Origin: Nanobdellota archaeon
Lineage (GTDB): Archaea; Nanobdellota; Nanobdellia; Woesearchaeales; GW2011-AR4
Reading direction: 5' to 3'
Assembly (NCBI GenBank): GCA_038046685.1
Contig: JBBSVT010000074.1
Location: 389 to 64,388 of the forward strand
DNA length: 64,000 nucleotides
Within the stretch, counting starts at the first letter, position 1; the number at the start of each line of letters is the position of its first letter. A model generated the notes under the pieces. It worked only from the letters and a program-made list of their open reading frames with translations, was not told the origin of the DNA and ran no database searches. Both the position numbers and the translations under genes were made by a program. Below are positions 10,194 to 63,562 of the stretch, piece after piece.

Positions 10194-12785
10194 ATGAACA
10201 AATTAATGAAATACCTGTCTTTATTGGTAATTCTACTTTTAGTTCCTAGTAACATTGCTTTTGCGAAGTATTCTGGCTCACCTGAACCTAATTTACATGA
10301 GGGAAGATCAATAGAGGATTCCAATGAAGGCGAAGAATACCACAAAGAAGGCAATATCGTCATCTATCCAGTTCAAACTAATTCTAACGAAAAAGAAATG
10401 ATGAATCGCGTTATGAGGGGCGAGTTGAGCGAAGAAGAAATGCAACGTATTGCAATGGCAAAAATGGGCGATAAATTTTCAGAAGAGGACTTCAAACGAG
10501 GCATGATGGAATTAAAGGAAAGAATGGGCAGAAGAGAGACCTTTTCTTATGAGCATGGCGGATATGGGACAACATATTATGCAGGGCCTTCATACGAGGG
10601 CTATTCCAAAGAACACATGATATTTGGCATGATTTTCGAATATATAGGGGATGAAATTGATCCGAGGGAGATTAAGAAAAATTGCGTTGAGCCTGAAAAG
10701 ATTGCTGACGGGGTATTAATTAAGTTAAAGGAAAAAACTGGGGATTTGCAAAACATTTGCACAAAGTTTGAAGAGCAGGAATCAAAGTGTGCAGACCACT
10801 CCAAAAAGTCTTGTTCGAATATTGGGACTGCTTTTGTCAGAGAAGATGCAAATGAAATAGAGAAAATAAATGCAGTCGCATACTCATGTCCTGTAAAAGA
10901 GGATGCAATCATAGAAGCTTGCAAGAGGAGGAGCAAGTTCCATATGGAACAGCGGCTTCAAAATATGGATGAACAATGCAAAAAAAGATTTGATTTTGAA
11001 GGGGATAGGCTAACTAGGGAATGTGAGAAGTTTAAGGAATATCAAGTTTGCGATAAAGTGAAGTATGTAAAACAATGCATGGGTAATTTTGGAGTTAAAA
11101 GAGAGGATTTTGAAAAACCAATAACTTGTAGCAAAGAAGAGTGCGGACCAGCACCAGCTATGCCAAATTACCTCTGCCCAGATGGAAATACATGGGCTGG
11201 TCATGGAGGATGTGTACGCAAAAGAGATGGAAGCTGTAGTTGGGAAATTATAAGTTGTCCATCAACTATTGACTGCCCAGAGGTTAGAATGCCAACTTGC
11301 GGAGCAGGTGTTACTGCTCAAAAACATACTGGAAAAAGTGGTTGCGTATTCTATATTTGCGCTTCAGTTCCAGACTGTCCACAAATTGCAATTAAAATGT
11401 GCCCAGAAGGAGCCACTCTTGAAAAAAAGACTGATGAAAGAGGATGTCCTGATTATACAAGTTATCAATGCATAAAAAATGAAATCCAATGTCCAGAGGT
11501 ATCAAGAGTAACTTGTGCTGAAGGGCAGAGCTTGATAACAAGGTACGATGACAAAAGATGTGTTGTTGGGTACGAGTGCATTAGCGTAACTACTAAATCA
11601 ACAACACAATCAACTGAAACTACTGCTACTACTAGTGGCACTACAACAGAAACATCTGCTACAACTGGCCAAGGAGCAACAACATCAGCAAGTACAACAA
11701 TCACAGGACAAGTTGTTTTAAACACTTATGATGACTTCTTAAGGCATTGTGAAAATAATTGGAGAGAGCAAGAAAGAATATGTCAAAATACACCAAGTGT
11801 TTGTGACAAAAGCGCTTTTATTGAGAACTGCAAAGAGCACGAAAGAAAAGGATATTCAGATTTTATATCAAGGATAGAAAAAAATTGTGAAATCCAAACA
11901 ATATCTGAGGTAAAATCTGCTGAGCGAAGATGCAGCAGAACAGACGAAGACAGAAAACGCTGCTTGGAAGATAGCGCAAAACGATGCGAGCATATGAAAG
12001 GAATAGCACAACAATGCAGAGATTTAATGACAGAAGAAAAAATAAGAAATTTCATTATTGAAGAAACAAAGAAAAGATGCAAGTTTACTGAAATACTCCA
12101 GGACACTAATGATGTGAGAAATGCAGAAAAAGCAGAAATTGTACTTGCAGTCTTAAATACCGCAACCAAAGATGATTTTGAGAAATTAATCCTTTTTGTT
12201 GACAATCTTCACGAAGACTTAAAACTGCAAGACACAACAGTCTATAAAGGAACAATCGAGCCTAATAGATTCAGAGACATAAAATTACTGCCATTTGTTG
12301 TAAATGCAAAGATAAGTGCTGTTCGGAGTACTGAAAGAGCAAAGGAAGTCAAGGCAAGAATTGTGGCAGGGCAAAAAGCTGAAGAAGCCGCAAGCAAACT
12401 TGTTTCATTACGAGACTCTGATGTGCCAAGCGAGTACCTTTACATTATTGAGGACAAAGCAAGCGAAGTCCTCGATGTTTCAGATGATTTGGAGGAGATT
12501 GAGAAAAAAGATGAGCAGAAAGGTATGGGTTATAAGATAAAGTTGTTTTTAGGGCTTGCCAAGAGAGCTGAGCAGGAAGAAATCAAGCAATTAGAAGGAA
12601 GCAAGGAAAAGTTAAGAGGCTCCATTGAAGCATTGGCAAAGCTGATTGATGAAGTTCCAAACGACGTTGCAAGAGCAATCTTAAAAGAGCAAGTAGAGAG
12701 CTTAAAGAACCAACAAGGAGAAATTGAAGTTTTAATTGAAACTAAGGAGAAGAAATCAAAAGGATTCTTTGGAATGTTTGGATAG
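10194..12785 (+). CDS. secreted protein: signal peptide, repeated Cys modules, Thr-rich linker, C-terminal coiled coil
   Basis: N-terminal MNKLMKYLSLLVILLLVPSNIAFA; repeated DCP[EQ]V...C...GC modules; TTKSTTQSTETTATTSGTTTETSATTG linker; heptad-like C-terminus. Confidence 0.6.
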   Translation: MNKLMKYLSLLVILLLVPSNIAFAKYSGSPEPNLHEGRSIEDSNEGEEYHKEGNIVIYPVQTNSNEKEMMNRVMRGELSEEEMQRIAMAKMGDKFSEEDFKRGMMELKERMGRRETFSYEHGGYGTTYYAGPSYEGYSKEHMIFGMIFEYIGDEIDPREIKKNCVEPEKIADGVLIKLKEKTGDLQNICTKFEEQESKCADHSKKSCSNIGTAFVREDANEIEKINAVAYSCPVKEDAIIEACKRRSKFHMEQRLQNMDEQCKKRFDFEGDRLTRECEKFKEYQVCDKVKYVKQCMGNFGVKREDFEKPITCSKEECGPAPAMPNYLCPDGNTWAGHGGCVRKRDGSCSWEIISCPSTIDCPEVRMPTCGAGVTAQKHTGKSGCVFYICASVPDCPQIAIKMCPEGATLEKKTDERGCPDYTSYQCIKNEIQCPEVSRVTCAEGQSLITRYDDKRCVVGYECISVTTKSTTQSTETTATTSGTTTETSATTGQGATTSASTTITGQVVLNTYDDFLRHCENNWREQERICQNTPSVCDKSAFIENCKEHERKGYSDFISRIEKNCEIQTISEVKSAERRCSRTDEDRKRCLEDSAKRCEHMKGIAQQCRDLMTEEKIRNFIIEETKKRCKFTEILQDTNDVRNAEKAEIVLAVLNTATKDDFEKLILFVDNLHEDLKLQDTTVYKGTIEPNRFRDIKLLPFVVNAKISAVRSTERAKEVKARIVAGQKAEEAASKLVSLRDSDVPSEYLYIIEDKASEVLDVSDDLEEIEKKDEQKGMGYKIKLFLGLAKRAEQEEIKQLEGSKEKLRGSIEALAKLIDEVPNDVARAILKEQVESLKNQQGEIEVLIETKEKKSKGFFGMFG

Positions 12786-27637: not shown

Positions 27638-28411
27638 TTATTGGGATTTTTGCTGCAGTCTCGCAGGAAGGGTCCCATGATGCTCATACATCATCTTCTC
27701 ATCTTCAGTCCAGCCCGTCATGTCCACTTGTGTTTTGGCTTGTTTTGTTTGAGATTGGCTTTCAATTCTCCTGTATTTATTCGAGGCAAGATTTATGTAA
27801 TTTAATTCAATGCTCTTCTCTCTAAGCACTTTTGCTTTTTGAGACATTTGAGATGGAAAAAACAAAGTTTTCCACTTGCCTAATTCCTCCAGTATTTCAT
27901 CATTTGAGAGTTCGTTTCCATGATTCTTGATCAAATATTTGGCTAAGCCCCTCATTGCGAAGCTATGGGCGCATCCGCATGCTGGCTCCCCATTTCCAAA
28001 AATAATCGCTTCAACTCCGCAGCAATACTCGCAGCTTATTTGGCTCCCAACCTTGATATACCTGTCTAAGTCGTTCCCGCTTAATTTTATTTGCCGGTCG
28101 AGGATACCTAGCTTGTTTATAGTTAAATCAGATTTCTGCTGATTATTTGCCGAGATATCATCAAAGCTTAAACCCAATTCGCTGCCGTAAACATTTGGAA
28201 TGCCTCTTGGTAAAACATCAAATGAGGCAGTTTTCATTTGAATATTGCTTCCAATATTCCCAATTGGATTTGTGCCTGCAATAGCATTTCCAGTTATTGG
28301 AGGTTTCTTTAATTGGTTTAGTTGAACTAAATTAAAAACCACCACAAGCAAGGCTGCTATTGCTAATACAGTGAGCAGCATTCCCATGGCTTTGTTTTTT
28401 TCAAAATCCAT
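27638..28411 (-). CDS. membrane-anchored protein with Cys-rich extracytoplasmic domain
   Basis: N-terminal TM; CEYCCGVEAIIFGNGEPACGCAHSF. Confidence 0.45.
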   Translation of the reverse strand: MDFEKNKAMGMLLTVLAIAALLVVVFNLVQLNQLKKPPITGNAIAGTNPIGNIGSNIQMKTASFDVLPRGIPNVYGSELGLSFDDISANNQQKSDLTINKLGILDRQIKLSGNDLDRYIKVGSQISCEYCCGVEAIIFGNGEPACGCAHSFAMRGLAKYLIKNHGNELSNDEILEELGKWKTLFFPSQMSQKAKVLREKSIELNYINLASNKYRRIESQSQTKQAKTQVDMTGWTEDEKMMYEHHGTLPARLQQKSQ

Positions 28412-34365: not shown

Positions 34366-36552
34366 TCAGCGAAAGCAATCAGCTATTCCATCTTTTAAAT
34401 TGTCTATGGTTATGGACTCATTTCTAAAATACTCTTGAAGTTTAGCAAAAATTCTTGTGTATAACTGCTGTAGATGTTTGTCACCAACTCTATCAGGATG
34501 AAATATTTTTGCTAATAGCCTGTAACTGAGAATGCTAATCCCATATTCTCTTTGCGTTTGTAATCTTTCTCGCTTTTCCTTATTCGCACTTGCCATCTCC
34601 AAAAATCTTTGCCTTATTGAAGGATGAGCATTCAAAGTTTCTAAAATAGGTTGCAAAATATCATGAATTAGAAGAAAAAAATTCTCGCTACCTCCAACAC
34701 AACCACTACTTGAAATTTCCCTTAGAAAATGCGCAAATTCATTAATACTTACGCTGTGGTTTCTGACATAGCGGCTTTTTATTTCTTCCCATTGTTGTTG
34801 TTTTTGCCTTAGTTCTGCAGAAGGTTGTACTGGTTCTGCCCCATCTGTTGCCTCTCTGTCTTCAGCCCCAGCTCCTGGCTGTGCTCTTCCTCTTGTACCC
34901 CCTTCACCAGCTCTTGACTTAGCTCTTTCGCTTGCTATTCTATGTTTCTCTTCGGCAATTTTTGTAAGTTCTAGAAGAATACGTAAACGAGGTTTAAAAG
35001 ATTCAAAATGTTCTATAACCGAATCGTTTTGCAAGAAATAATCCAACTCAGTCCAGTTGAAATCGATTAACAATTGAGCATACACCGATAATTCATTTCC
35101 TTGATCTACATTCAAAATATTTTGCCCTTCTCCCTGAACTAGATGTTTATTTACTTCATCAAATGGCAATGGTTCGCTCCTTAACATTGTAAACAAACTA
35201 TCAAAAAAAGAGACTATGCTCCGAGATTCTGCACTTTCTTCACCACCAACTCCTGCACCTCTTGTTTTTCTGATCAATTGTTCAGCTAATCTTCCCAATA
35301 GCGCAATTTGCTTTTCAATCTTTTCGGTTAGAGCTTTAATAATCAAATTTTCTATTTTATGATAGTAACTTAATTTTCTTGTATCTTCTATCTCTTTCTT
35401 ATATTTGCCCTTCACAAGCTCCCCTATATATTTTATCTCCAATAATGCTTCTATTTCTTTGGCTAAAATTTCTTCATGCTTTAATGCGTCAAAGCAAATA
35501 AAAATCAGATGAATTATACCGATTTTTCTTAGATCGTTTATTGTTGCACGGTCGATTCTTCTTATCTCATCTACAACTATTGATGTATACATTAAATTAT
35601 TATATTCCTCTTCATGCTGGCTTGTATTCTTATGTTGTTTGCAAAGCTTAAATATTATTAAGAAATCTCGCTCTATTTCTCTTAATTCCACAAGATACTT
35701 ATTTAAAGTTCTTTCTAATTTAACAAATCTTTCAAAAAGGTCGTGTTCACTTCTAATATCGTCAATAGCCGGATCTGTATAGAGATTAGGTGGCGATTTG
35801 CTGAACTCCTCAAAAATAGCCTGTTCTACATCTCCGGCCTCGAGTATTGCCTTTTTTTCCTTGTTGGTGGCATTTATTTCATCTATTGCTCTTTTTTTTT
35901 CCGCTTTTAACTTATCTATGTGGCCAATAATCTCCTCAACTTTCATTGGCTCCTTTTTTTTCCTTTTTTTCAATCTTCTACGCACAAAAAATCCGCCGGC
36001 AATTAATATTAAAATGCCAATGGCAATCAAAATTTTAACCCATGGCAAGCCTTCTGTTGTCCTGGAAATCCATGAAGGAGCAGGTGCTGAAGAGGGCGTA
36101 GTTGGTTGTGTTATTTCAGGAGAAGGGGCTGTAGGAAATCCTTCAGGAGAAATTCCCCCAGGAGTCGAAGATGGTGTTGCTTTAGGGGAGGGAGTTGTTA
36201 CAGAAGGTTTTGGTTCAGCTGGTGTTGGCGGAGTGACTTGCTTAGCTTCGATATCAATGGGGGATTTGACTGATATAGGGGCAAACAAGTCTTGGGCGTA
36301 AGAAGATACATCTGGAGGGCTTTTAACTTCAGGAAACTGAATGCCTTTAAATGTTTCTGTGATTGAGCTCAAGAACCCAGTGGCGGGAGCTTTCACATCT
36401 GGAAGCGTAAGACTATCAAAAAGGATTTTGAATATGATTATGGTCAGCACAGTCAATACCAAAGCCAATGTGAAGCGCCAAAATTTGTTTTTGATTCCTA
36501 TCATCCTAATAACCACCACCAAAACCAAAATATCAGGAAGTAAAATACCCAA
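34366..36552 (-). CDS. membrane protein with Pro/Thr-rich linker and C-terminal J-domain-like (HPD) region
   Basis: TM helices; linker PTPAEPKPSVTTPSPKATPSSTPGG...; C-terminal YGISILSYRLLAKIFHPDRVGDKHLQQLYTRIFAKLQEYF resembles a DnaJ J-domain. Confidence 0.5.
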   Translation of the reverse strand: MGILLPDILVLVVVIRMIGIKNKFWRFTLALVLTVLTIIIFKILFDSLTLPDVKAPATGFLSSITETFKGIQFPEVKSPPDVSSYAQDLFAPISVKSPIDIEAKQVTPPTPAEPKPSVTTPSPKATPSSTPGGISPEGFPTAPSPEITQPTTPSSAPAPSWISRTTEGLPWVKILIAIGILILIAGGFFVRRRLKKRKKKEPMKVEEIIGHIDKLKAEKKRAIDEINATNKEKKAILEAGDVEQAIFEEFSKSPPNLYTDPAIDDIRSEHDLFERFVKLERTLNKYLVELREIERDFLIIFKLCKQHKNTSQHEEEYNNLMYTSIVVDEIRRIDRATINDLRKIGIIHLIFICFDALKHEEILAKEIEALLEIKYIGELVKGKYKKEIEDTRKLSYYHKIENLIIKALTEKIEKQIALLGRLAEQLIRKTRGAGVGGEESAESRSIVSFFDSLFTMLRSEPLPFDEVNKHLVQGEGQNILNVDQGNELSVYAQLLIDFNWTELDYFLQNDSVIEHFESFKPRLRILLELTKIAEEKHRIASERAKSRAGEGGTRGRAQPGAGAEDREATDGAEPVQPSAELRQKQQQWEEIKSRYVRNHSVSINEFAHFLREISSSGCVGGSENFFLLIHDILQPILETLNAHPSIRQRFLEMASANKEKRERLQTQREYGISILSYRLLAKIFHPDRVGDKHLQQLYTRIFAKLQEYFRNESITIDNLKDGIADCFR

Positions 36553-50567: not shown

Positions 50568-51569
50568 ATGCAAAAAAAAGGGCAAGTGACTTTGTTTTTA
50601 ATCTTAGGATTATCTTTAATTGCAGTATTTGGTGCAGTCTATTATTTTGGAGGCTATAAAACTGCCACAACTGCAAAAACTCAAGCTCAAGCTGCAGGAA
50701 GCTCAGACGCCAAAGACATTGTTAAGTCATACGCAGAAAATTGCTTGAAAAAGGTAACAGAAGAGGTATTGTTTAATAAGATTGGAGTGCAGGGTGGGTA
50801 TATAAATCCAAGTGAGATTAGTCCTGCTCCAACATTTTTTGATGGGTATAATGTGCCTGTTTATTTGGAAGTCAGATGCAATATGCAATGTAGGGACAAA
50901 ACTATACCACAATGTGGTCCTTGTCCTCCGCCTTCTACTGAACAATGTTGTGAAGATGTTCGAGTATGTGATTATTGCTGGTGTGATTGCCCTTACACCA
51001 GAATTATTGATAGAAGTTTAACCCTAGGTTCAATTAACAACAAATTAAAGAGGTACGTTGAAGACGAGTTTGAGAACTGTTTTGATAGAAATGTCTTTAA
51101 AAATGTCGGTATAGAGGTTATACAGTCTGGAACAAGCATAACCGCTGATGTAAGTTTAGATGCAGAAGATGTTTCTGTAAATTTATATTATCCTTTAACA
51201 ATTAGAAAAGATGGAACTGAGTCAAAGTTGGATTCATTTGTAGTTACTCTGCCAATTAGGCTAGAAAAATTATATAAAGGTGCAAAAGATTTTGTAGATC
51301 AAGTAATACGTAAACTTCCAGATTCCTCGCCCAAACCTTGTTATCCCATATGCACAGTCCAATACGACATAAGACAAGATTGTCAGAGTGGTGTGATATA
51401 CAACAAAAACCGCCTAACAAACGTTTATGCAAAAACTGCTGACTCAAACACAAAAGTTATCCAATTCTTTGATTTCAGCACTTATTTAGAAAAATACTTC
51501 AAATCTTTCATTTTCCAATTTGCTGTTAGGCTTAATGGTGTGAATATCGAAGGTGCTTGTACTGGATGA
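50568..51569 (+). CDS. membrane-anchored/secreted Cys-rich protein
   Basis: N-terminal TM; CRDKTIPQCGPCPPPSTEQCCEDVRVCDYCWCDCPY. Confidence 0.5.
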   Translation: MQKKGQVTLFLILGLSLIAVFGAVYYFGGYKTATTAKTQAQAAGSSDAKDIVKSYAENCLKKVTEEVLFNKIGVQGGYINPSEISPAPTFFDGYNVPVYLEVRCNMQCRDKTIPQCGPCPPPSTEQCCEDVRVCDYCWCDCPYTRIIDRSLTLGSINNKLKRYVEDEFENCFDRNVFKNVGIEVIQSGTSITADVSLDAEDVSVNLYYPLTIRKDGTESKLDSFVVTLPIRLEKLYKGAKDFVDQVIRKLPDSSPKPCYPICTVQYDIRQDCQSGVIYNKNRLTNVYAKTADSNTKVIQFFDFSTYLEKYFKSFIFQFAVRLNGVNIEGACTG

Positions 51570-51635
51570 AGAAATAGATTGAATTAACTCAATTTTTTTC
51601 AAATTCCTAATCATCTCTTCTTTTTTTAGTTTGAA

Positions 51636-51683
51636 TTTTCTTGGGTTTTTGTTAGTGGTGGGAATGGGTTTGGTTGTTTAATC
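51636..51683 (+). other. orphan 5' gene fragment encoding only the signal-peptide core (FLGFLLVVGMGLVV*) shared with the two giant secreted-protein genes
   Basis: ttcttgggtttttgttagtggtgggaatgggtttggttgtt matches 52474-52520 and 55160-55195 at 21-33 nt stretches; followed immediately by a stop. Confidence 0.4.
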
Positions 51684-51762: not shown

Positions 51763-52120
51763 TGAAAGAAGAAGTAAAGAGATGGTGAGCAAAAGCAAAA
51801 GACGACTTAGATAAAGCTGTAATCTTATTCAATAATGGGAAAATGATGGTACTGCATTTTTTTGTCAACAATCTGTTGAGAAGGGGTTAAAAGCATTAGC
51901 TCTTAAAGAAAAGAGTTTTATAAACAAAATTCATGACCTTGTTGAATTAGGAAAAGATGTCAACTTGCCACAACATTTGATTGTTTACTGCAGTGAATTA
52001 ACTTTATCCTATATCTATTCAAGGTACCCTGACGTTGAGGATAAAGACATAAAATCTGTGTCAGATAATTTCTTAAAATATACCAAAGAAATACTAAAAT
52101 GGATAGAAAAGAAGCTATAG
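51763..52120 (+). pseudogene. HEPN-domain toxin paralog with in-frame TGA at codon 9 and a homopolymer frameshift
   Basis: MKEEVKRW-TGA-AKAKDDL...; after a T8 run the reading continues in another frame (FCQQSVEKGLKALALKEKSF...KEILKWIEKKL*) matching the intact paralog at 57769..58161. Confidence 0.6.
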
Positions 52121-52416
52121 CTAAGCTGAAAAGTTTTAAAAAATTGGTAAGTAAGGATTTAACAATTAGTGATATGTATTTTTTTGGTTCCATAGCAACT
52201 GGTAAACCGCATAAATACAGTGATATAGATTTAGTCATAGTGAGTCCTAAATTTAGAGAGTTAAATTTTTTTAAAAGAGGCGCACTTATGTATAATTATT
52301 GGAATTTAAGATACCCAGTTGACTTCCTTTGCTACACTCCAGAAGAATTTAACAAATTGAAGAAACAAATAACAATTGTAAAGGAAGCTGTTGAGAATGG
52401 AATAGAAATTCGATAG
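52099..52416 (+). CDS. minimal nucleotidyltransferase (MNT antitoxin), paralog of 58137..58454
   Basis: MYFFGSIATGKPHKYSDIDLVIV; C-terminus identical to its paralog (YPVDFLCYTPEEF...IVKEAVENGIEI). Confidence 0.7.
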   Translation: MDRKEAIAKLKSFKKLVSKDLTISDMYFFGSIATGKPHKYSDIDLVIVSPKFRELNFFKRGALMYNYWNLRYPVDFLCYTPEEFNKLKKQITIVKEAVENGIEIR

Positions 52417-52452
52417 CTTTATATACAACTTCTTTCAGTTACAAAAGCGAGA

Positions 52453-55074
52453 ATGAAAAGAGGTAAATTAGCTTATTTTCTTGGGTTTTTGTTAGTAATG
52501 GGTATGTCTTTGGTGGTGAGTGGGGTTGGGTATGCTCAACCAGCCTGTGAGCAAGTGGCTGGACAAATCCGAGATTCTGACTCCGATGGTGCGTGTGATC
52601 GCACTACTGATGGGGGCACACCTGATAAATGTATTGCGGCTGCTGGTTCTCCTGATTTTGGAAGCCATAATGTTGATTCAAACGGATGCACGTGCAGACA
52701 AAAAGTTTCATCAGCTTGCTCGTCAACATATTCAGGGGCTGCATGTTGCTCTGCCAATCAATGCTGTGGTAGATTCGGTGCAGCTAGTTATTCATGTTTG
52801 GATGATTGTGTGGGTAATGTTGCTTCAACAGGCGCCGGTGCTCCAAGTGGCACTGGTTCTTCTACTGGCACAACTGCAACTGGCTGCAGCCCAGGCTCTG
52901 GTCCAACATCACAAGATCCAGTTTTAAGAATAAATGCAAATAGATACACACCGGTCGACAGAGGGCGTTTAATAGCCGAACAGGACATAGCAATAGGTGG
53001 TGGTCCGTCTGGAACTCCAATATACAGCAATAATGCTAATAGCCCTGTTGAGTTGCCAGCTGGAACAAATCCTGTTTTGATTGTTAGAAGATTAAGGATT
53101 GCGCCTGAAAATGGAGCTGCACAGCCAATAAGGATTTATCTCAGCAAGAAACCGTGTCAGGCAGGTGGATATTGGTATGATGTTATATGGGGAACTGTTA
53201 TAGGTAATATAAGGTTTGGTGAAGAAGATTTTAGATTTAATCTTGGCTCATCATTAGAACAAGGAGTTATACATTCTGTTTATGTTGTGATTGGCAACGA
53301 AGGCAGCAATGACTTGTCATCATCAACAGAGCTTTTCTTTAGAGTTGGACCTGCGAATACCGTAATTGTAAGTCCGCCCTCAGGCTCTTCTCCAACCCCG
53401 ACAACTTGCACTCCAAGAATAGAAGCTTTTGATTATAATTTTGTAGTTGGCAAAGTAGGAAGACTTAAGGTAATATCCAATAAACGAGGAAAGATAATAA
53501 TCTTAGCAAAAGGAGTGTCATCCCCTTCTAATGATTATAGAATAATGAAAGAATGCGGTTCAATTAACGATCCAAAGACTGAATGTGAATATAAATTTTT
53601 AGAGGATTCTAGTCATCAAGATGGACAAGTAATAACATCTATGTGGAGTGGATCTTTAATTAATTATTACGCTGAGTTGCAAACACCTTCTGGTGAATGT
53701 GTTCAATCCACACCAGAACGAGCATGCAGATGGCCAGATGTCAATGCTAAGATTATGCAGATAAAACAAGCAGGTGCGTTAGGTTACTGCACTGATGAAA
53801 CTCATATTTATAATGGAGGAGCTGATCCTTTAGGAAGTCTTTGTACCTCAAGTCCACCTAACACATGTAATCCTGGTTATTGTGGCAGAGATAGTGGTAA
53901 TCCAGTATGTATTTACCCAACAAATTGTGTAAGCAATCCTGATAATTCAATGAAAGCATTAAGGACATTTTTGCCATTGTGTGATAGTGTGACGGGAACG
54001 GCTGGACCTAGTGCTCCTGGTGGAACTGGTGCATGGGATTTGTGCGCAACTCTCACAGGAGGTATTCCAACAGCCATGCAGCCATTGCAAGGACCGTATA
54101 CACCAGCCTCAAGTTTGAATATGCCATTGCGTCCATATCTGAGAATTAATGGGCTTCCTGGCAGTGGTGATGCTAATAGCGAAAGCAGTCCTATAGTTAT
54201 CACAAAAGGCGAGCAAGTTACTGTAACTGTTGCAAGCTATAATGGCAATTTACCTGTTAATCTACCAATTAGAATATATATAGAGCAGAAGTCACAGGAT
54301 GGGAGTTGGAGTGTAATAAGTCCAGGTAGTTTAGGATACACTCAACCAGGATGCTGGTATTCCAATACTATTCCAGGTTCTGCTACGGCTGGTTGGCCCG
54401 CTGGCACATATAGAACATATTTGGTTGTTGGCGAAGATGTAAATCAACGCTCTTCTTCATCTTATGTGTATTTTAAGATTCAAACTCCTCCAGGAACTTC
54501 GGCATGTACACCTGTTCTTGGAGGCAACCAATATGCTGTGGATTTAAGCAGGTCAAAATATACAGGATGCAATGTCCAAGCAATTCAAGATTTATCTAAC
54601 ACTATTACATGCGATCAATTAGCACCGACATGGTCTCATAATAATCCAACTGGTACCATGACGTTTTGGTGGCCAATAATTCCAGGCGCTACCTCATATA
54701 ACATAAGGCTTGAGGAATTTGACGCCACAACAAATACAGCTACAGGAGCAAGAATAAGGGATTCTGGAACTGCTCCTCCAATTGCAAGTAACTGTGGTGG
54801 TGATCCTCATTATTATTGTGTTAATGGTATTACTGCTGCTACACCAGGAATAATAGTAATTGGTGGACAGCTAAGCATTGATAATATTAGACTTGACAGA
54901 AATAAAAAATATGCTTTTTGGGTTGACCCTGTAAGTGTCCCAGGATGCGGCACTAATTATGTTCAGGGAAGTGTGACTTTTAGAACTACAAACCTTGTCG
55001 TTCCTCGACCTATTAATCCAAGCACTGCCACATCAACATGCCCAGCTGCAAGCATTTCAGCTGAATTAACATAA
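52453..55074 (+). CDS. giant secreted Cys/Gly/Thr-rich surface protein carrying a novel ~100-aa repeat module
   Basis: Signal peptide MKRGKLAYFLGFLLVMGMSLVVSGVGYA; Cys-rich N-terminal region; C-terminal module TSYNIRLEEFD...DPHYYCVNG...NKKYAFWVDPVSVPGC. Confidence 0.6.
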   Translation: MKRGKLAYFLGFLLVMGMSLVVSGVGYAQPACEQVAGQIRDSDSDGACDRTTDGGTPDKCIAAAGSPDFGSHNVDSNGCTCRQKVSSACSSTYSGAACCSANQCCGRFGAASYSCLDDCVGNVASTGAGAPSGTGSSTGTTATGCSPGSGPTSQDPVLRINANRYTPVDRGRLIAEQDIAIGGGPSGTPIYSNNANSPVELPAGTNPVLIVRRLRIAPENGAAQPIRIYLSKKPCQAGGYWYDVIWGTVIGNIRFGEEDFRFNLGSSLEQGVIHSVYVVIGNEGSNDLSSSTELFFRVGPANTVIVSPPSGSSPTPTTCTPRIEAFDYNFVVGKVGRLKVISNKRGKIIILAKGVSSPSNDYRIMKECGSINDPKTECEYKFLEDSSHQDGQVITSMWSGSLINYYAELQTPSGECVQSTPERACRWPDVNAKIMQIKQAGALGYCTDETHIYNGGADPLGSLCTSSPPNTCNPGYCGRDSGNPVCIYPTNCVSNPDNSMKALRTFLPLCDSVTGTAGPSAPGGTGAWDLCATLTGGIPTAMQPLQGPYTPASSLNMPLRPYLRINGLPGSGDANSESSPIVITKGEQVTVTVASYNGNLPVNLPIRIYIEQKSQDGSWSVISPGSLGYTQPGCWYSNTIPGSATAGWPAGTYRTYLVVGEDVNQRSSSSYVYFKIQTPPGTSACTPVLGGNQYAVDLSRSKYTGCNVQAIQDLSNTITCDQLAPTWSHNNPTGTMTFWWPIIPGATSYNIRLEEFDATTNTATGARIRDSGTAPPIASNCGGDPHYYCVNGITAATPGIIVIGGQLSIDNIRLDRNKKYAFWVDPVSVPGCGTNYVQGSVTFRTTNLVVPRPINPSTATSTCPAASISAELT

Positions 55075-55116
55075 ATCATAAAACACATTATTAAATTACA
55101 ACTAAAAAACATTAAA

Positions 55117-56547
55117 ATGTTACAAGAACAAATGAAAAAAGGTGTTAAGTTTTTTCCTGTATTTTTGTTAGTGATGGGAATGGGTTTGGTTGTCTTGGAT
55201 GTTTATGCAACAGATCCGGAACCTACACCAATTCCACAAGTTGTTAGTTGCAGTCAATTTCAGTCAGCTAATTCTTTTTATGCTAGTTGGACGTGCACTC
55301 TATCCTTTTCTACCAATTGTGATGGTGGTGTGATTAATAATGATATTCATTACTGGCGGCGGGATAATGGTGAGGGTGGTTGCTTGATTCTTACAAGACC
55401 AGGCGGTCCAGCACCCCCTCCTGTTTCTTCACAGCGACTAATGCGAATTAGCTGGACAGCAATACAAAATGCGATCTCTTATAATCTGCGAGTGGAAGAT
55501 ATGACCGATAATACATATAATACAGTACGTACAAATCGTCAGGAAGATTTCCCCGCTTCTGATACTTGCGATCCAAGTCCCCATTATGTTTGTGAAAACA
55601 ATGTAAATACATTGTTCTTGGCTGGTATTCGGGTTGTCCCAGGACATACTTATAGGTATTGGTTTGATACAAATCCTGCAATTGCTGGATGTGCTCCGAC
55701 TGGAATAATTAGTGTGCCATCAAGTCCTGCTTCAGGTGCTCCAAGTGGTGGCGCTCCAACCCAACCGACAGGCGCTGCGCCTTGCCCAATAACTATATCT
55801 CCACCACAGGTTTCTGGCGGTGCTTTTGATGGAGGCCGTACCTTTGTTACTATATCTTGGAACAATGTTAATAACGCCAACAGCTACAAGTTATACGCAA
55901 CACCATCTGGTTCTGAGGATCAACCAGCAGACCAACCACAAGGTTTCTCTGCATGCACCGACATACCGGGATTTGTTATTTGCAAGTCCGTAAATACCAA
56001 TTCAATACCTTATTTCCCAATTTTCCCTGGAAGACCTTACAAATTCATGGTACAAGCTTCAGTTCCCAATTGCGGTGCAGTAAATTCCCCAGAAACAGAC
56101 TATCGTTATGGTCAAGGAGTTACTTTTACTGCCAACCCTACTAGTCCGGAACAACGTTGTGGTAGAGTTGGCGTTTTTGACCCTCAACTAATAGGTACAA
56201 TTAGTGGAAGTGGCGATTCCTCCGCAGAATTGAGATGGCAATATTTTCCTCCTGCTGGCGTAAGCCCTGTTCCTACTCCAACATCATATAATGTAAGATT
56301 AGATGATAGATCAGGCGAAAGGTCTGGTCTTAATAATTGCCCAGATAATCCTCCTTACTACTTATGCGTAAATGGTGTGAGAGTCAATGCATTGCGAGAT
56401 GTGCTCATTAGAGCTGGAAGAAATTATCTTCTCTGGGTTGAGCCTGTTATTCCTGGATGCACAGACCAACCTGGTGGCTACATAAAAGGAGAAAGAACAA
56501 TATATCTGCCTGTACCTCCACCGTCGGAAGGGGGGGGTAATCGATAA
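55117..56547 (+). CDS. secreted protein made of three copies of the same ~100-aa module
   Basis: Signal peptide shares FLLVMGMGLVV; repeats ISYNLRVED...PHYVCENN...YRYWFDTNPAIAGC, NSYKLYATP...FVICKSV...YKFMVQASVPNC, TSYNVRLDD...PYYLCVNG...YLLWVEPVIPGC. Confidence 0.6.
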   Translation: MLQEQMKKGVKFFPVFLLVMGMGLVVLDVYATDPEPTPIPQVVSCSQFQSANSFYASWTCTLSFSTNCDGGVINNDIHYWRRDNGEGGCLILTRPGGPAPPPVSSQRLMRISWTAIQNAISYNLRVEDMTDNTYNTVRTNRQEDFPASDTCDPSPHYVCENNVNTLFLAGIRVVPGHTYRYWFDTNPAIAGCAPTGIISVPSSPASGAPSGGAPTQPTGAAPCPITISPPQVSGGAFDGGRTFVTISWNNVNNANSYKLYATPSGSEDQPADQPQGFSACTDIPGFVICKSVNTNSIPYFPIFPGRPYKFMVQASVPNCGAVNSPETDYRYGQGVTFTANPTSPEQRCGRVGVFDPQLIGTISGSGDSSAELRWQYFPPAGVSPVPTPTSYNVRLDDRSGERSGLNNCPDNPPYYLCVNGVRVNALRDVLIRAGRNYLLWVEPVIPGCTDQPGGYIKGERTIYLPVPPPSEGGGNR

Positions 56548-56606: not shown

Positions 56607-56680
56607 AAAAAAATCAATGTCAAAATAAAATATTCAAATAACAGAAAAATAAACACAAAAAATCAATGTCAAAATAAATT
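56607..56680. repeat. tandem copies of the AT-rich motif AAAAAATCAATGTCAAAATAAA in an intergenic region
   Basis: Copies at about 56607-56630 and 56656-56678; related copies at 57651-57674 and 57701-57720 in a paralogous spacer. Confidence 0.6.
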
Positions 56681-57768: not shown

Positions 57769-58161
57769 ATGTATCAAGAATTATTGGTAATAACAATGAA
57801 AGAGGAAATTAAGAGATGGATGGAATTTGCAAAAGATGATTTGAAGAAGGCGCATGATAATTTTAATATTGAAAATTATAATCTAAGTTCTTTTTTATGC
57901 CAGCAAGCAGTTGAAAAGGCTTTAAAAGCCATGTTAATTAAAAAAATGAATAAGTATCCAAAAATACATGATTTAGTAATGTTGGGAAATTTGGCTGGTT
58001 TGGATAAAAACTTATTAAAATATTGCGAAAAATTGACTTTTGTGTACACTGAAACAAGGTACCCAGATACAAGTTATCGAAAATACTCAAAAGAAGAGTC
58101 AGAAGAGGATATTAAAAATACTGAAGAAATCTTGAAATGGATAGGAAAAAAACTATTATAA
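57769..58161 (+). CDS. HEPN-domain protein (toxin of a HEPN-MNT pair), intact
   Basis: 130 aa; C-terminal ...ETRYPD...; pairs with the downstream MNT at a 25-nt overlap. Confidence 0.65.
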   Translation: MYQELLVITMKEEIKRWMEFAKDDLKKAHDNFNIENYNLSSFLCQQAVEKALKAMLIKKMNKYPKIHDLVMLGNLAGLDKNLLKYCEKLTFVYTETRYPDTSYRKYSKEESEEDIKNTEEILKWIGKKLL

Positions 58162-58454
58162 AAAAACTTGAAAGGTTTAAAGGTCAAATACAAAACAATA
58201 TTGATGTAGATAAAATTATATTCTTCGGTTCTAGAGTTCATGGAAAACCGTATAAGGATAGCGATATAGATTTAATAATAGTCTCAAAAGATTTTAGAGA
58301 AAAAAAATTCAGATATAGGCCAATAGGATTTTATGATTATTGGGACTTAGATTACCCAGTTGACTTCCTTTGCTACACTCCAGAGGAATTCAACAAATTC
58401 AAAAAACAAGTAACAATAGTCAAGGAAGCAGTAGAGAATGGAATTGAGATTTAG
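58137..58454 (+). CDS. minimal nucleotidyltransferase (MNT antitoxin)
   Basis: IIFFGSRVHGKPYKDSDIDLIIV. Confidence 0.7.
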   Translation: MDRKKTIIKKLERFKGQIQNNIDVDKIIFFGSRVHGKPYKDSDIDLIIVSKDFREKKFRYRPIGFYDYWDLDYPVDFLCYTPEEFNKFKKQVTIVKEAVENGIEI

Positions 58455-58505: not shown

Positions 58506-59252
58506 ATGAATAATCCAAAGACAATAAAAAAACAAAAAATGAAACACCATAAGCCGTATTTGACAAGAATCCTGATTTTGCCTGCACTAATTTTATTGCT
58601 CTCAGCGCTTTTGGTAAATGCCCAAGTATCAGCCAAAATCTACGCTATTACGCTTAATTACAAAAGTTCAGTGCTATTGGAAAGACTATCTTTGGTAGAC
58701 ATTCGCGAAGCTCAGGGAACTCCGCAGGATTTTAGCGCGATAACAAAAGGCTACAGATTGGACATCCTTTCAGCCGATAACAAATTATTAAAGAGCATAA
58801 GGTTTAATATACCTATTCCGGAATTACAGGAAGGTGACCTAAATTTGGACTTTACAATGGGTTTGCCTTATCACAACAATGCTAAACAAATAAACATTTA
58901 TGATGCGGGCAATAACAAAGTACTGGAAATTCCATTGCAGTCTTCAAGTCCAACAAGCGCAAAGCCGCTGCAGGAATTATCCCAAATTGATAAGAAACAA
59001 AACATAGTATGGCTTGTTGTTGCTTTGCCGCTGTTTGCTGTGATTTTATTTTTGGCCTACATCGAGCTGAATCGCAAAAAAAGCCATGCAGAGCTAATGC
59101 AGCATCTGAGCAAGCAAAATGCGCTTGCACTGAGAAATTATATTATGGCAAATTCAAGAAAAGGTTATGGCAAGGATCAATTAAGAAATGTTCTGCTTAA
59201 AAACAATTATACTAAAGACGAAATTAACGAGGCTTTTAAGGGGCTGAAGTGA
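58506..59252 (+). CDS. type I membrane/secreted protein (signal peptide, extracellular domain, single TM, cytoplasmic tail)
   Basis: LTRILILPALILLLSALLVNAQVSA; later IVWLVVALPLFAVILFLAYI. Confidence 0.45.
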   Translation: MNNPKTIKKQKMKHHKPYLTRILILPALILLLSALLVNAQVSAKIYAITLNYKSSVLLERLSLVDIREAQGTPQDFSAITKGYRLDILSADNKLLKSIRFNIPIPELQEGDLNLDFTMGLPYHNNAKQINIYDAGNNKVLEIPLQSSSPTSAKPLQELSQIDKKQNIVWLVVALPLFAVILFLAYIELNRKKSHAELMQHLSKQNALALRNYIMANSRKGYGKDQLRNVLLKNNYTKDEINEAFKGLK

Positions 59253-63226: not shown

Positions 63227-63562
63227 TTAAAGTTTATTGGAATCAGGGTTTGATATTAGGCTGTCGATGTAGCCTTCATAAACCACGTCGCGCAGAAATC
63301 TATCTGCTTCCTGCTCTTTCAAACCATACCCAAGAAGTCTTTTTTTGATGCAGTATTCATGACTGGATATTGCTGAGTAAACTATCTCTTTAAGCCTTGA
63401 GTAATCATTCTTTGATGTATCTCCTCGTTGATTCTTGCCGGATGCATATACAGCACTCAACACAGCAGCTGCCACAGCCAGTGTTGGTGATACAAGGGTT
63501 GCAGCTATTGTGCCGAAAATCAGATCGGCATTACTCCCGGACCTCGTGATAAAGTCATCCAA
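63227..63562 (-). CDS. hypothetical protein
   Basis: 111-aa ORF. Confidence 0.3.
   Translation of the reverse strand: MDDFITRSGSNADLIFGTIAATLVSPTLAVAAAVLSAVYASGKNQRGDTSKNDYSRLKEIVYSAISSHEYCIKKRLLGYGLKEQEADRFLRDVVYEGYIDSLISNPDSNKL

Follow-up and report, generated by a model that had tools for sequence, protein, structure and literature searches.

A divergent fibronectin type III module with a cysteine-bearing loop in two adjacent secreted proteins of a DPANN archaeon, probably remains of one gene

The cells of DPANN archaea are tiny and mostly depend on a host, and their large secreted orphan proteins are obvious candidates for making contact with it. N-glycosylation sequons are usually abundant in archaeal S-layer proteins. 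Among fibronectin type III (FN3) domains of solved structure, the nearest by sequence to the module described here are the bacterial 3mpc and the consensus design FN3con (5j7k, 4u3h). The module belongs to two adjacent genes, pA (AABX33_05275) and pB (AABX33_05280), in a stretch of 64,000 nucleotides, hereafter the window. The module has relatives both among DPANN archaea and among bacteria, and its closest subfamily comes from Nanoarchaeota/Woesearchaeota MAGs and groundwater metagenomes. P0151 (MBI2652783.1, 'DUF4214 domain-containing protein', Candidatus Woesearchaeota archaeon, 1350 aa) shares with pA and pB an N-terminal Cys-rich region, a second type of repeat (type-2), FN3 modules with a Cys loop and zero sequons, and aligns with pA at 40% identity across 312 aa and with pB at 37% across 243 aa (BLASTP E 1.3e-53 for pA, with further segments across residues 1-838, and 2.3e-31 for pB). 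P0088 (MEK6984584.1, 'PKD domain-containing protein', Nanoarchaeota archaeon, 1099 aa) and its relatives P0094, P0100 and P0144 carry a type-2 repeat followed directly by one Cys-loop FN3 module, and like pA and pB they are secreted, Cys-rich and sequon-depleted. We regard pA and pB as two secreted, multidomain, beta-rich proteins of a Nanoarchaeota/Woesearchaeota-type DPANN archaeon, and put the explanation as a whole (FN3 variant, gene split and binding role jointly) at a probability of roughly 70%.

Two adjacent secreted proteins

Both ORFs were found exactly where the earlier note had placed them; its word 'giant' is too strong, these proteins being large only.

52418..52425, +: possible archaeal TATA box TTTATATA, ~28 nt before the start codon of pA
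52453..55074, +: pA, 873 aa, secreted multidomain protein of a Nanoarchaeota (DPANN) MAG
52453..52536, +: pA signal peptide MKRGKLAYFLGFLLVMGMSLVVSGVGYA, the only hydrophobic 19-mer in pA
52537..52902, +: N-terminal Cys-rich region of pA, 13 Cys, DSDSDGACD motif, 33-40% identical to the P0151 N-terminus
52918..53382, +: type-2 repeat (~150 aa) of pA, copy 1, from self-alignment (z 7.3)
53383..54072, +: central Cys-rich region of pA, weakly similar to P0151 residues 123-338
54073..54522, +: type-2 repeat of pA, copy 2, 60% identical to the matching P0151 repeat
55117..56547, +: pB, 476 aa, secreted
55117..55209, +: pB signal peptide (..KKGVKFFPVFLLVMGMGLVVLDVYA), the only hydrophobic segment in pB

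The putative TATA box was so named on what we take to be its resemblance to the archaeal consensus. The GC3 of pA (0.24) is as low as that of the neighbouring genes, indicating that the gene is native. Each protein has a Sec-type signal peptide, and a hydrophobicity scan of both detected no second hydrophobic 19-mer beyond the N-terminus. Cleavage is predicted after G-Y-A in pA, from the -3/-1 rule (G, A) applied to the sequence, and after V-Y-A in pB. Translation of pB may begin at Met6 (55132), which aligns with the pA start codon in a duplicated 5' segment described below, instead of at 55117. A class III (type IV pilin-like) signal peptide was also considered. The FlaFind-type motif for this class is [KR]-G followed at once by a hydrophobic stretch, whereas in pA (KRG-KLAY) and pB (KKG-VKFF) a charged residue falls where the motif demands hydrophobic ones, and an A-x-A-like site follows the h-region of each; this type was therefore rejected. 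A neighbouring ORF at 50568..51569 (MQKKGQVTLFLIL) does fit the archaeal class III motif. Elsewhere in the window, at 10194..12785, lies another Cys-rich secreted orphan of matching size (863 aa, 38 Cys), beside which pA and pB may or may not be the major surface proteins of the region that the earlier note had thought them probably to be.

The earlier note had described pA as a long Cys/Gly/Ser/Thr-rich region ending in one module. The single module stands, but the region is not featureless, since it holds the type-2 repeat at residues 156-310 and 541-690. Local HMM matches of this repeat were obtained in P0151 (two copies), P0088 and P0094, and no sequence match in Pfam or PDB. Neither the N-terminal nor the central Cys-rich region has a Pfam match; the central one aligns with P0151 at 23% identity (E 0.004), and we assume that the DSDSDGACD motif resembles the thrombospondin type 3 Ca-binding motif. 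Similarly, pB does contain three tandem modules, but its first ~100 residues, consisting of the signal peptide and a unique Cys-containing stretch, lie outside any of them.

The repeated module is a divergent FN3 domain

Four copies of the module were delimited.

54610..55002, +: FN3-type module of pA (residues 720-850), with Cys720, Cys781, Cys789 and Cys832 and an additional hairpin inserted between C' and E
55414..55731, +: FN3-type module B1 (pB residues 100-205), ~55% identical to the first module of P0151
55783..56151, +: FN3-type module B2 (pB residues 223-345), from repeat alignment
56158..56526, +: FN3-type module B3 (pB residues 348-470), from repeat alignment

The repetition reported earlier is real. 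Pairwise identities are 25-32%, and in local alignment five of the six copy pairs score 7.7-16 SD above 300 shuffles, none of which reaches their scores; the sixth pair, B2 with the pA copy, is weak (z 2.5, equalled by 6/300 shuffles). BLASTP of pA against pB recovers the module at E 6e-9 and 2e-8. An HMM of the four copies, as the earlier note had proposed, could be built and detected no additional copy when the window was translated in all six frames. Counting the N-terminal Cys, each module has four conserved Cys positions, not three as first read. Among 32 family modules W21 and C62 are invariant, and Y30, R33, Y68, C70 and Y101 are at least 90% conserved. The FN3 core is retained as the Trp of strand B, Tyr-x-[VL]-R in strand C and the strand-F Tyr in Y-x-F-W-V, and the C-C' loop, expanded by some 15-25 residues, bears the conserved motif N-C-x(2-9)-P-H-Y-x-C. 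Most likely the loop is clasped onto strand C' by a disulfide between the two Cys of the motif, and the Cys just before strand A most likely pairs with that of the F-G loop (P-G-C) to staple the other pole. DPANN members that have the N-terminal Cys also have one within or following the F-G loop, and in the bacterial subfamily an A-C-N-x-x-G-C pair takes the place of these two.

The module had been described as not assignable to a known family, with a confident FN3 alignment named beforehand as evidence to the contrary, and at the level of the family profile such an alignment was obtained. Searched against PDB, the 32-module profile matched FN3 domains almost exclusively, including titin (2.8e-7), the 'Fn3-like protein' 3mpc (3.4e-5, profile positions 9-90 of 103) and FN3con (9.5e-5, positions 10-99). 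In hhalign against 21 canonical FN3 domains it aligned over 72 columns (94.4% probability, E 8.5e-8), with strands E, F and G included, the Cys loop as an insertion, and W21, Y30 and Y101 of the module placed on W22, Y32 and Y68 of the canonical set. Pfam fn3 matches 6/32 family members (E<0.01), and a homologous module with the same Cys loop in P0046 reaches 37.4 bits against the 25-bit gathering score. Furthermore, an exhaustive profile search of 1.8 billion proteins returned 2850 proteins at E<=1e-3, of which the top multi-match proteins are canonical arrays of 24, 11 and 6 fn3 domains. The window copies themselves fall below every Pfam and NCBIfam threshold, as the earlier note had led one to expect; pA, pB and each of the four modules taken singly gave zero Pfam matches even at E<=10. 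A PKD identity was rejected, with no PKD match in the window modules or the 32 family members. The PKD match of P0088 lies at residues 498-577, apart from its module at 185-292.

The proposed extracellular beta-sandwich was borne out by the Sec-type signal peptides and by an all-beta AF2 model of the pA module from the 32-row alignment (pLDDT 86.2, pTM 0.80), with the strand order A, B, C, long loop, C', hairpin, E, F, G. Foldseek returned only Ig/FN3 sandwiches, and alignment-free folding of pB was moderately confident for B2 alone (pLDDT 62-83). The Foldseek TM-scores of merely 0.4-0.55, the window copies without Pfam or NCBIfam match and the many exhaustive-search matches that cover only profile positions ~5-45 could also be read as a new beta-sandwich family, its FN3 likeness convergent and limited to the 'W ... 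A-x-S-Y-x-V' pattern of strands B and C. We consider this extremely unlikely: the matches to 3mpc and FN3con span strands B to G, the hhalign alignment extends through strands E, F and G, homologous Cys-loop modules exceed the Pfam fn3 gathering score, and the family conserves the core residues of FN3. The repeated module of ~100-130 aa is thus a divergent FN3 domain with an extra cysteine-clasped loop, an unusual variant of an ordinary kind of domain, distinguished by its C-C' insertion and second Cys pair. This assignment takes away a false novelty, and the 32-sequence profile is a usable handle that recognises a probably disulfide-clasped FN3 subfamily of DPANN archaea and bacteria missed by Pfam.

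A probably split gene and its duplicated signal-peptide segment

P0151 covers both pA and pB in one ORF at a syntenic locus (L018), whose flanks are conserved in the same order (neighbours 42% and 51% identical, together with a HEPN/NTase pair). On sequence and gene order, P0151 is the positional ortholog of pA plus pB. The segments that bear on the relationship are as follows.

51635..51677, +: third, truncated relic copy of the signal-peptide segment (..FLGFLLVVGMGLVV, then a stop), directly after the gene at 50568..51569
52475..52517, +: repeated signal-peptide DNA core, pA copy, from three-way alignment
55033..55071, +: C-terminal tail of pA, STCPAASISAELT, equivalent to the N-terminal Cys and strand A of pB module 1
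55151..55193, +: repeated signal-peptide DNA core, pB copy, from three-way alignment

The last 13 residues of pA are strand A of the first module of pB. The single chain of P0151 reads STCPSGASISAELT-DIGPQPRMRIRW..., joining the counterparts of the pA tail and pB module 1, and attaching the pA tail to pB from residue 101 onwards lifts the alignment score from 288 to 326. With P0151 being one ORF, this makes the pair look like the product of gene fission. The pA protein is present in identical form in NCBI, Logan and ENA assemblies, and an identical protein was also found in the database for pB; identity in three independent assemblies indicates that the split is not an assembly error. In addition, the shared signal sequence FLLVMGM(S/G)LVV noticed earlier holds and extends to the DNA, where 52438-52517 and 55119-55193 align with a score of 58 against 17.8 +/- 2.4 (maximum 28) in 500 shuffles. 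The signal-segment pattern has three matches against 0.05 expected, and the position of the relic copy corresponds to the start of P0151 in the syntenic locus.

These observations suggest that pA and pB descend from a single ancestral gene and point to fission rather than fusion. The ancestral single gene would have broken inside a module, leaving strand A in pA and the remainder as module 1 of pB, and pB would have gained export competence through a duplicate of the 5' end of pA encoding the signal peptide. The direction is judged from a single orthologous locus, and fusion in the other lineage or a more complex shuffling is possible. That the two-gene arrangement is ancestral, with the 1350-aa Woesearchaeota ORF made by fusion, is compatible with the different domain order of the two lineages and with there being one locus to judge from, but we find it unlikely, because a 13-residue strand-A fragment without its own module is expected after a break and not before a fusion, because the signal-peptide segment of pB duplicates that of pA at the level of DNA, and because the third, decayed copy marks local rearrangement in the pA/pB lineage. 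With fission as the favoured direction, the locus would be a clear small-scale example of a secreted gene split in two, both halves being exported by way of a duplicated signal-peptide segment.

Possible surface role and comparison with known systems

Sec export followed by signal-peptide cleavage would place pA and pB outside the cell, where they would serve as rigid arrays of binding or spacer domains, stabilised by disulfides, probably in attachment to a host cell, matrix or polysaccharide, with the conserved loop and its His/Tyr/Asn/Arg as a candidate ligand site. Since FN3 carries no specific function, the 'adhesin-type' reading of the earlier note can only be inferred, and we accordingly describe pA and pB as probable secreted, disulfide-stabilised binding or adhesion proteins. 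The modules might instead serve a secreted enzyme only as linkers or as aids to carbohydrate binding, with catalysis residing in the central Cys-rich region or type-2 repeats of pA. The nearest solved FN3 relatives do come from bacterial carbohydrate-active enzymes (3mpc; 5g56, a CBM6 protein; 9vsf, a beta-1,3-glucanase), and bacterial-type relatives of the module are joined to trypsin, beta-helix (NosD-like) and DUF642 as well as TIG, PKD and FG-GAP domains. However, domain searches detected no catalytic family in pA, pB or P0151, pB is little besides three modules, and the partners in DPANN relatives (FG-GAP, PKD, somatomedin-B, DUF4214) are of adhesion or binding type, so that an enzymatic context appears quite improbable.

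The glycosylation sequons that the earlier note had thought worth checking proved to be absent: N-X-S/T occurs 0 times in pA and pB, where 8.8 and 4.3 are expected. Those ORFs of the window whose sole hydrophobic segment is N-terminal have 0 against 22 expected, and orthologs from other DPANN genomes have 0/11.5, 0/18.4 and 2/19.6 (observed/expected); sequons are not depleted in bacterial relatives of the module. The absence bears on whether pA and pB, as large, secreted, beta-rich products of adjacent genes with a plausible strong (putative) TATA box, form the S-layer or are the main proteins of the cell envelope. This is very unlikely, given zero sequons, no C-terminal transmembrane or sorting segment (nor was any membrane or cell-wall anchor found in either protein), orthologs that are variable mosaics instead of a conserved lattice protein, and a second protein of equal size and type within the same window. 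A bolder reading, tentative and in our judgement somewhat more doubtful than credible, is that pA and pB belong to a DPANN secretome under strong selection against any N-glycosylation sequons, with paired cysteines providing extracellular stability, and that the N-C-x-P-H-Y-x-C loop is a dedicated ligand- or host-recognition site; if true, the Cys-loop module would be a functional class of its own and not a spacer. Sequon absence from the secreted proteins, if genome-wide, would amount to a testable statement on the surface biology and glycan economy of reduced archaea.

Three comparisons can be drawn. With FN3 (PF00041) the module shares, as predicted by AF2, the strand order of a seven-strand beta-sandwich, and also the Trp of strand B, Tyr of strand C and Tyr of strand F, with bacterial FN3 also the A-x-S-Y-N-V motif, and extracellular tandem arrays are common to both. 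Unlike canonical FN3, its C-C' loop is expanded into N-C-x(2-9)-P-H-Y-x-C, a second Cys pair is present (N-terminus/F-G loop or A-C-N-x-x-G-C), some copies have an extra hairpin, and the window copies lie below the Pfam threshold. Among DPANN relatives, P0151 differs from pA and pB in being one ORF with an unrelated signal peptide, another module order and a DUF4214 domain, which a domain search found in neither pA nor pB, and P0088, P0094, P0100 and P0144 differ in having a single module each plus PKD, FG-GAP or somatomedin-B domains. Archaeal S-layer glycoproteins resemble pA and pB as large, Sec-exported, beta-rich extracellular proteins, whereas pA and pB are without anchor segment, sequons or membership of a conserved lattice-protein family, and seem to owe their stability to disulfides, not to glycans.

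Two adjacent proteins, predicted to be secreted, and their repeats

The features of the two genes are as follows.
52453..55074, plus strand: pA, 873 aa, identical to hypothetical protein AABX33_05275 of a Nanoarchaeota MAG
55117..56547, plus strand: pB, 476 aa, identical to hypothetical protein AABX33_05280 of a Nanoarchaeota MAG
pB residues 100-205, 223-345 and 348-470: three module copies (B1, B2 and B3)
pA residues 720-850: one module copy
52918-53382 (pA residues 156-310) and 54073-54522 (residues 541-690): two copies of a second, type-2 repeat of ~150 aa (z 7.3)

The reading frames lie exactly where the earlier note had placed them, and the proteins, which it called giant, are large rather than giant. 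NCBI, Logan and ENA assemblies all contain both sequences, so that an assembly artefact does not explain the gene structure. The repeated Cys-containing module was confirmed: the four copies share 25-32% identity, and five of the six pairs scored 7.7-16 SD above shuffled controls, the weak pair being B2 and the pA copy (z 2.5). No additional copy was found when an HMM of the four was run against the six-frame translation of the window. pB had been described as essentially three modules; all three are present, but its first ~100 residues are a signal peptide and a unique stretch, and residues 29-105 had no detectable relative and were also ruled out as a degenerate module. Single-sequence AlphaFold2 modelled whole pB poorly (pLDDT 41.7). 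In pA, the single module copy was as described, but the preceding region, characterized until now only as rich in Cys, Gly, Ser and Thr, harbours the two type-2 repeats (..KGEQVTVTVAS..LPIRIYI..YxVVGEDVN.RSSS.VYF..). This repeat also occurs in the homologous proteins P0151 (two copies), P0088 and P0094, usually beside the module. Because neither Pfam nor the PDB gave a sequence match to it, even for a profile of 6 rows, the type-2 repeat is the domain of pA truly without family assignment.

A divergent FN3 domain with a Cys loop

The module had been proposed as a possible new family. Pfam and NCBIfam gave zero matches to the window copies even at E<=10, and the pattern ..[IL]SW..[VI]..A.SY.[VL]R ... 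Y.FWV.. points to FN3. The four-copy profile matched the 'Fn3-like protein' 3mpc best among solved structures (E 0.007). A word-index homology search with pB, pA or an alignment of 32 modules was uninformative, returning the query proteins alone or nothing, and an exhaustive HMM search was therefore needed for relatives. Among 1.84 billion representatives it recovered 2850 proteins at E<=1e-3, of which the top multi-hit proteins were ordinary fn3 arrays (24, 11 and 6 fn3 domains). The 32 modules were drawn from the matches bearing the full module, and in the PDB their profile hit hardly anything but FN3 domains: titin best (2.8e-7), then 3mpc (3.4e-5, positions 9-90 of 103) and FN3con (9.5e-5, positions 10-99), with RPTP and tissue factor next. 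Profile-profile comparison with 21 canonical FN3 domains gave 94.4% probability (E 8.5e-8, 72 columns) and showed the Cys-containing stretch to be inserted between strands C and C'. Among the 32 modules of the family, six matched Pfam fn3, and a homologous module with the same Cys loop, in P0046, scored 37.4 bits against a threshold of 25 bits. With the family alignment, AlphaFold2 modelled the pA module confidently (pLDDT 86.2, pTM 0.80). In this model the strands follow one another as A, B, C, C', E, F and G, with a ~30-residue loop between C and C' and a hairpin between C' and E; Foldseek matched it exclusively to Ig/FN3-type sandwiches, the TM-scores (0.4-0.55) being modest. The sandwich suggested earlier is thus a known fold. 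Since the structure-profile, profile-profile, Pfam and structure-prediction tests agree, the module is not a new family but a Pfam-invisible, probably disulfide-clasped FN3 variant. The refutation that the earlier note had named, a confident alignment to a known family, has thus occurred at the level of the family profile.

Across the 32 modules, the FN3 core positions W21, Y30, R33 and Y101 are invariant or nearly so. In the added C-C' loop (N-C-x(2-9)-P-H-Y-x-C), C62 is invariant and Y68 and C70 reach at least 90%; such strong conservation suggests that the loop may have a role beyond that of a spacer. A second Cys pair takes two mutually exclusive forms. The window copies belong to the DPANN-type subfamily, where a Cys just before strand A co-occurs with another that lies within the F-G loop or beyond it (P-G-C, or Y-C), whereas the bacterial-type subfamily lacks the N-terminal Cys and has a local A-C-N-x-x-G-C pair instead. 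This co-occurrence is the pattern expected from paired disulfides, which the modules probably form. Members of the closest subfamily (…SPHYYCENGI…PGCGYF…) come from MAGs of Nanoarchaeota and Woesearchaeota and from groundwater metagenomes. DPANN relatives of the module adjoin FG-GAP, PKD, somatomedin-B and DUF4214 domains, and distant bacterial relatives adjoin trypsin, beta-helix, DUF642 and TIG domains; the module is a mobile extracellular unit. The same Cys-loop variant also occurs at the presumably bacterial loci L013, L014/L015 (encoding P0149), L016 and L017, with locus GC of 0.37 to 0.69 and normal sequon counts; in P0149, six repeats with many N-A-T-S sequons come after the module.

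A probably split ortholog with duplicated signal-peptide segments

At the N-terminus, pA and pB each have one hydrophobic segment and, after it, a small-x-small site; the candidate cleavage sites, read directly, are G-Y-A|Q and V-Y-A|T, respectively. Neither protein has a further hydrophobic stretch, C-terminal anchor or lipobox. Both would be exported by Sec and cleaved; a class III (pilin-type) signal peptide was rejected on motif. Local GC is 0.42-0.43, above the surroundings, which hinted at horizontal acquisition. However, the excess comes from codon position 2 alone and GC3 (0.24-0.27) is like that of neighbouring genes, so that the excess reflects amino-acid composition and the genes are native.

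The 1350-aa Woesearchaeota secreted protein MBI2652783.1 (P0151) shares homology with pA that starts in the N-terminal Cys-rich region (40% identity, 312 aa); further along the same chain, it carries pB-like modules (37% over 243 aa). Its locus, L018, is syntenic with the window: the gene upstream is 42% identical to 50568..51569, so that the latter is conserved next to the big secreted gene, a downstream HEPN/NTase pair matches that of the window, and a 259-aa gene is 51% identical to 58506..59252. A search of JGI metagenomes with the pA-P0151 alignment brought up no relative. Across the junction, P0151 runs as an uninterrupted chain, STCPSGASISAELT-DIGPQPRMRIRW, whereas pA ends in STCPAASISAELT-stop and module 1 of pB starts with ..QRLMRISW. 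This comparison identifies the pA end as an orphaned Cys and strand A of a module continued in pB. pA and pB are probably the split ortholog of the Woesearchaeota protein.

The shared signal sequence, already noticed earlier, proved to be a DNA-level duplication: the 5' end of pB duplicates that of pA over a stretch that begins 15 nt before the start codon of pA and takes in the hydrophobic core (score 58, where shuffles reached 28 at most), which makes Met6 (55132) the likely start of pB. The core pattern has three matches against 0.05 expected. These features surround the genes in the window and in L018.
50568..51569, plus strand: conserved neighbour, 333 aa, 16 Cys
51635-51677: third, truncated signal-peptide segment, ..FLGFLLVVGMGLVV-stop
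~51763-52099: decayed HEPN gene, MKEEVKRW*AKAKDDL.., in another frame ..QQSVEKGLKALALKEK..IHDLVELGK..YPD
57769..58161 and 58137..58454: HEPN/nucleotidyltransferase pair
L018 5887-6557 and 13741-14408: HEPN/nucleotidyltransferase pairs

The third copy directly follows 50568..51569, where the start of the syntenic ortholog would fall. Next come the decayed HEPN gene and an intact NTase gene (52099..52416); the toxin-antitoxin-like pair is one partner short because HEPN has decayed. Such pairs flank the big secreted gene at both loci, and the NTase 52099..52416 is closest to the downstream L018 copy (64% identity), suggesting that the cassettes may move locally. In the simplest reading, a toxin-antitoxin cassette would have been inserted at the 5' end of a single ancestral gene, and an internal break would then have left two exported proteins, with the signal-peptide segment duplicated on both occasions. 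One ortholog and the vestigial strand argue for fission rather than fusion; since domain order also differs between the two lineages, we put the probability of this direction at about 0.6. On this evidence, pA and pB would offer a clean case of fission with signal-peptide duplication.

The N-terminus of 50568..51569 (MQKKGQVTLFLILGL..) resembles an archaeal class III (pilin-type) signal peptide. Downstream of pB, a ~22-nt direct repeat, AAAAATCAATGTCAAAATAAA, occurs twice (56608-56629 and 56657-56678) within the A-rich spacer.

Sequon depletion and possible function

Glycosylation sequons, N-X(not P)-S/T, which the earlier note had suggested checking, are absent from both pA and pB, where 8.8 and 4.3, respectively, would be expected from composition. 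All 64 ORFs of the window were classed by hydrophobic segments.

Table. Sequons by ORF class in the window
N-terminal hydrophobic segment only (10194..12785, 27638..28411, 50568..51569, 52453..55074, 55117..56547, 63227..63562): 6 ORFs, 0 observed, 22.1 expected, Poisson P 2.5e-10
Cytoplasmic: 41 ORFs, 40 observed, 51.9 expected
Membrane: 17 ORFs, 25 observed, 22.0 expected

One of the six (10194..12785, plus strand; 863 aa, 38 Cys) is a secreted orphan with a signal peptide and no Pfam match, unrelated in sequence to pA and pB. DPANN-type homologs are likewise depleted (observed/expected: P0151 0/11.5, P0138 0/18.4, P0088 2/10.9, L008 2/19.6, L005 1/10.7), whereas bacterial-type homologs of the same module are not. 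AglB has been reported in DPANN members (PMC8993221). A 728-aa membrane ORF (34366..36552) considered as AglB/STT3 had no Pfam match and was rejected. We found no paper on the module or on sequon avoidance in DPANN. This apparent avoidance, counted in the 64-kb window and the homologs, is the most interesting by-product of the analysis.

The neighbouring genes (thioredoxin reductase, a DUF255 thioredoxin-like protein, HEPN/NTase pairs, UPF0175, Cu-ATPase, M17 peptidase) gave no functional link. S-layer proteins are disfavoured, as pA and pB lack both an anchor and sequons. A secreted enzyme with FN3 helpers would have room in the ~500 pA residues without family assignment, but zero catalytic family was detected, and this reading too is disfavoured. 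Our best guess, a tentative one, is that the proteins may serve extracellular binding or attachment, in view of anchorless export, tandem Ig-like/FN3 domains, probable disulfide stapling, the binding- or adhesion-type partner domains of DPANN relatives, and the dependence on hosts that is commonly ascribed to DPANN archaea.
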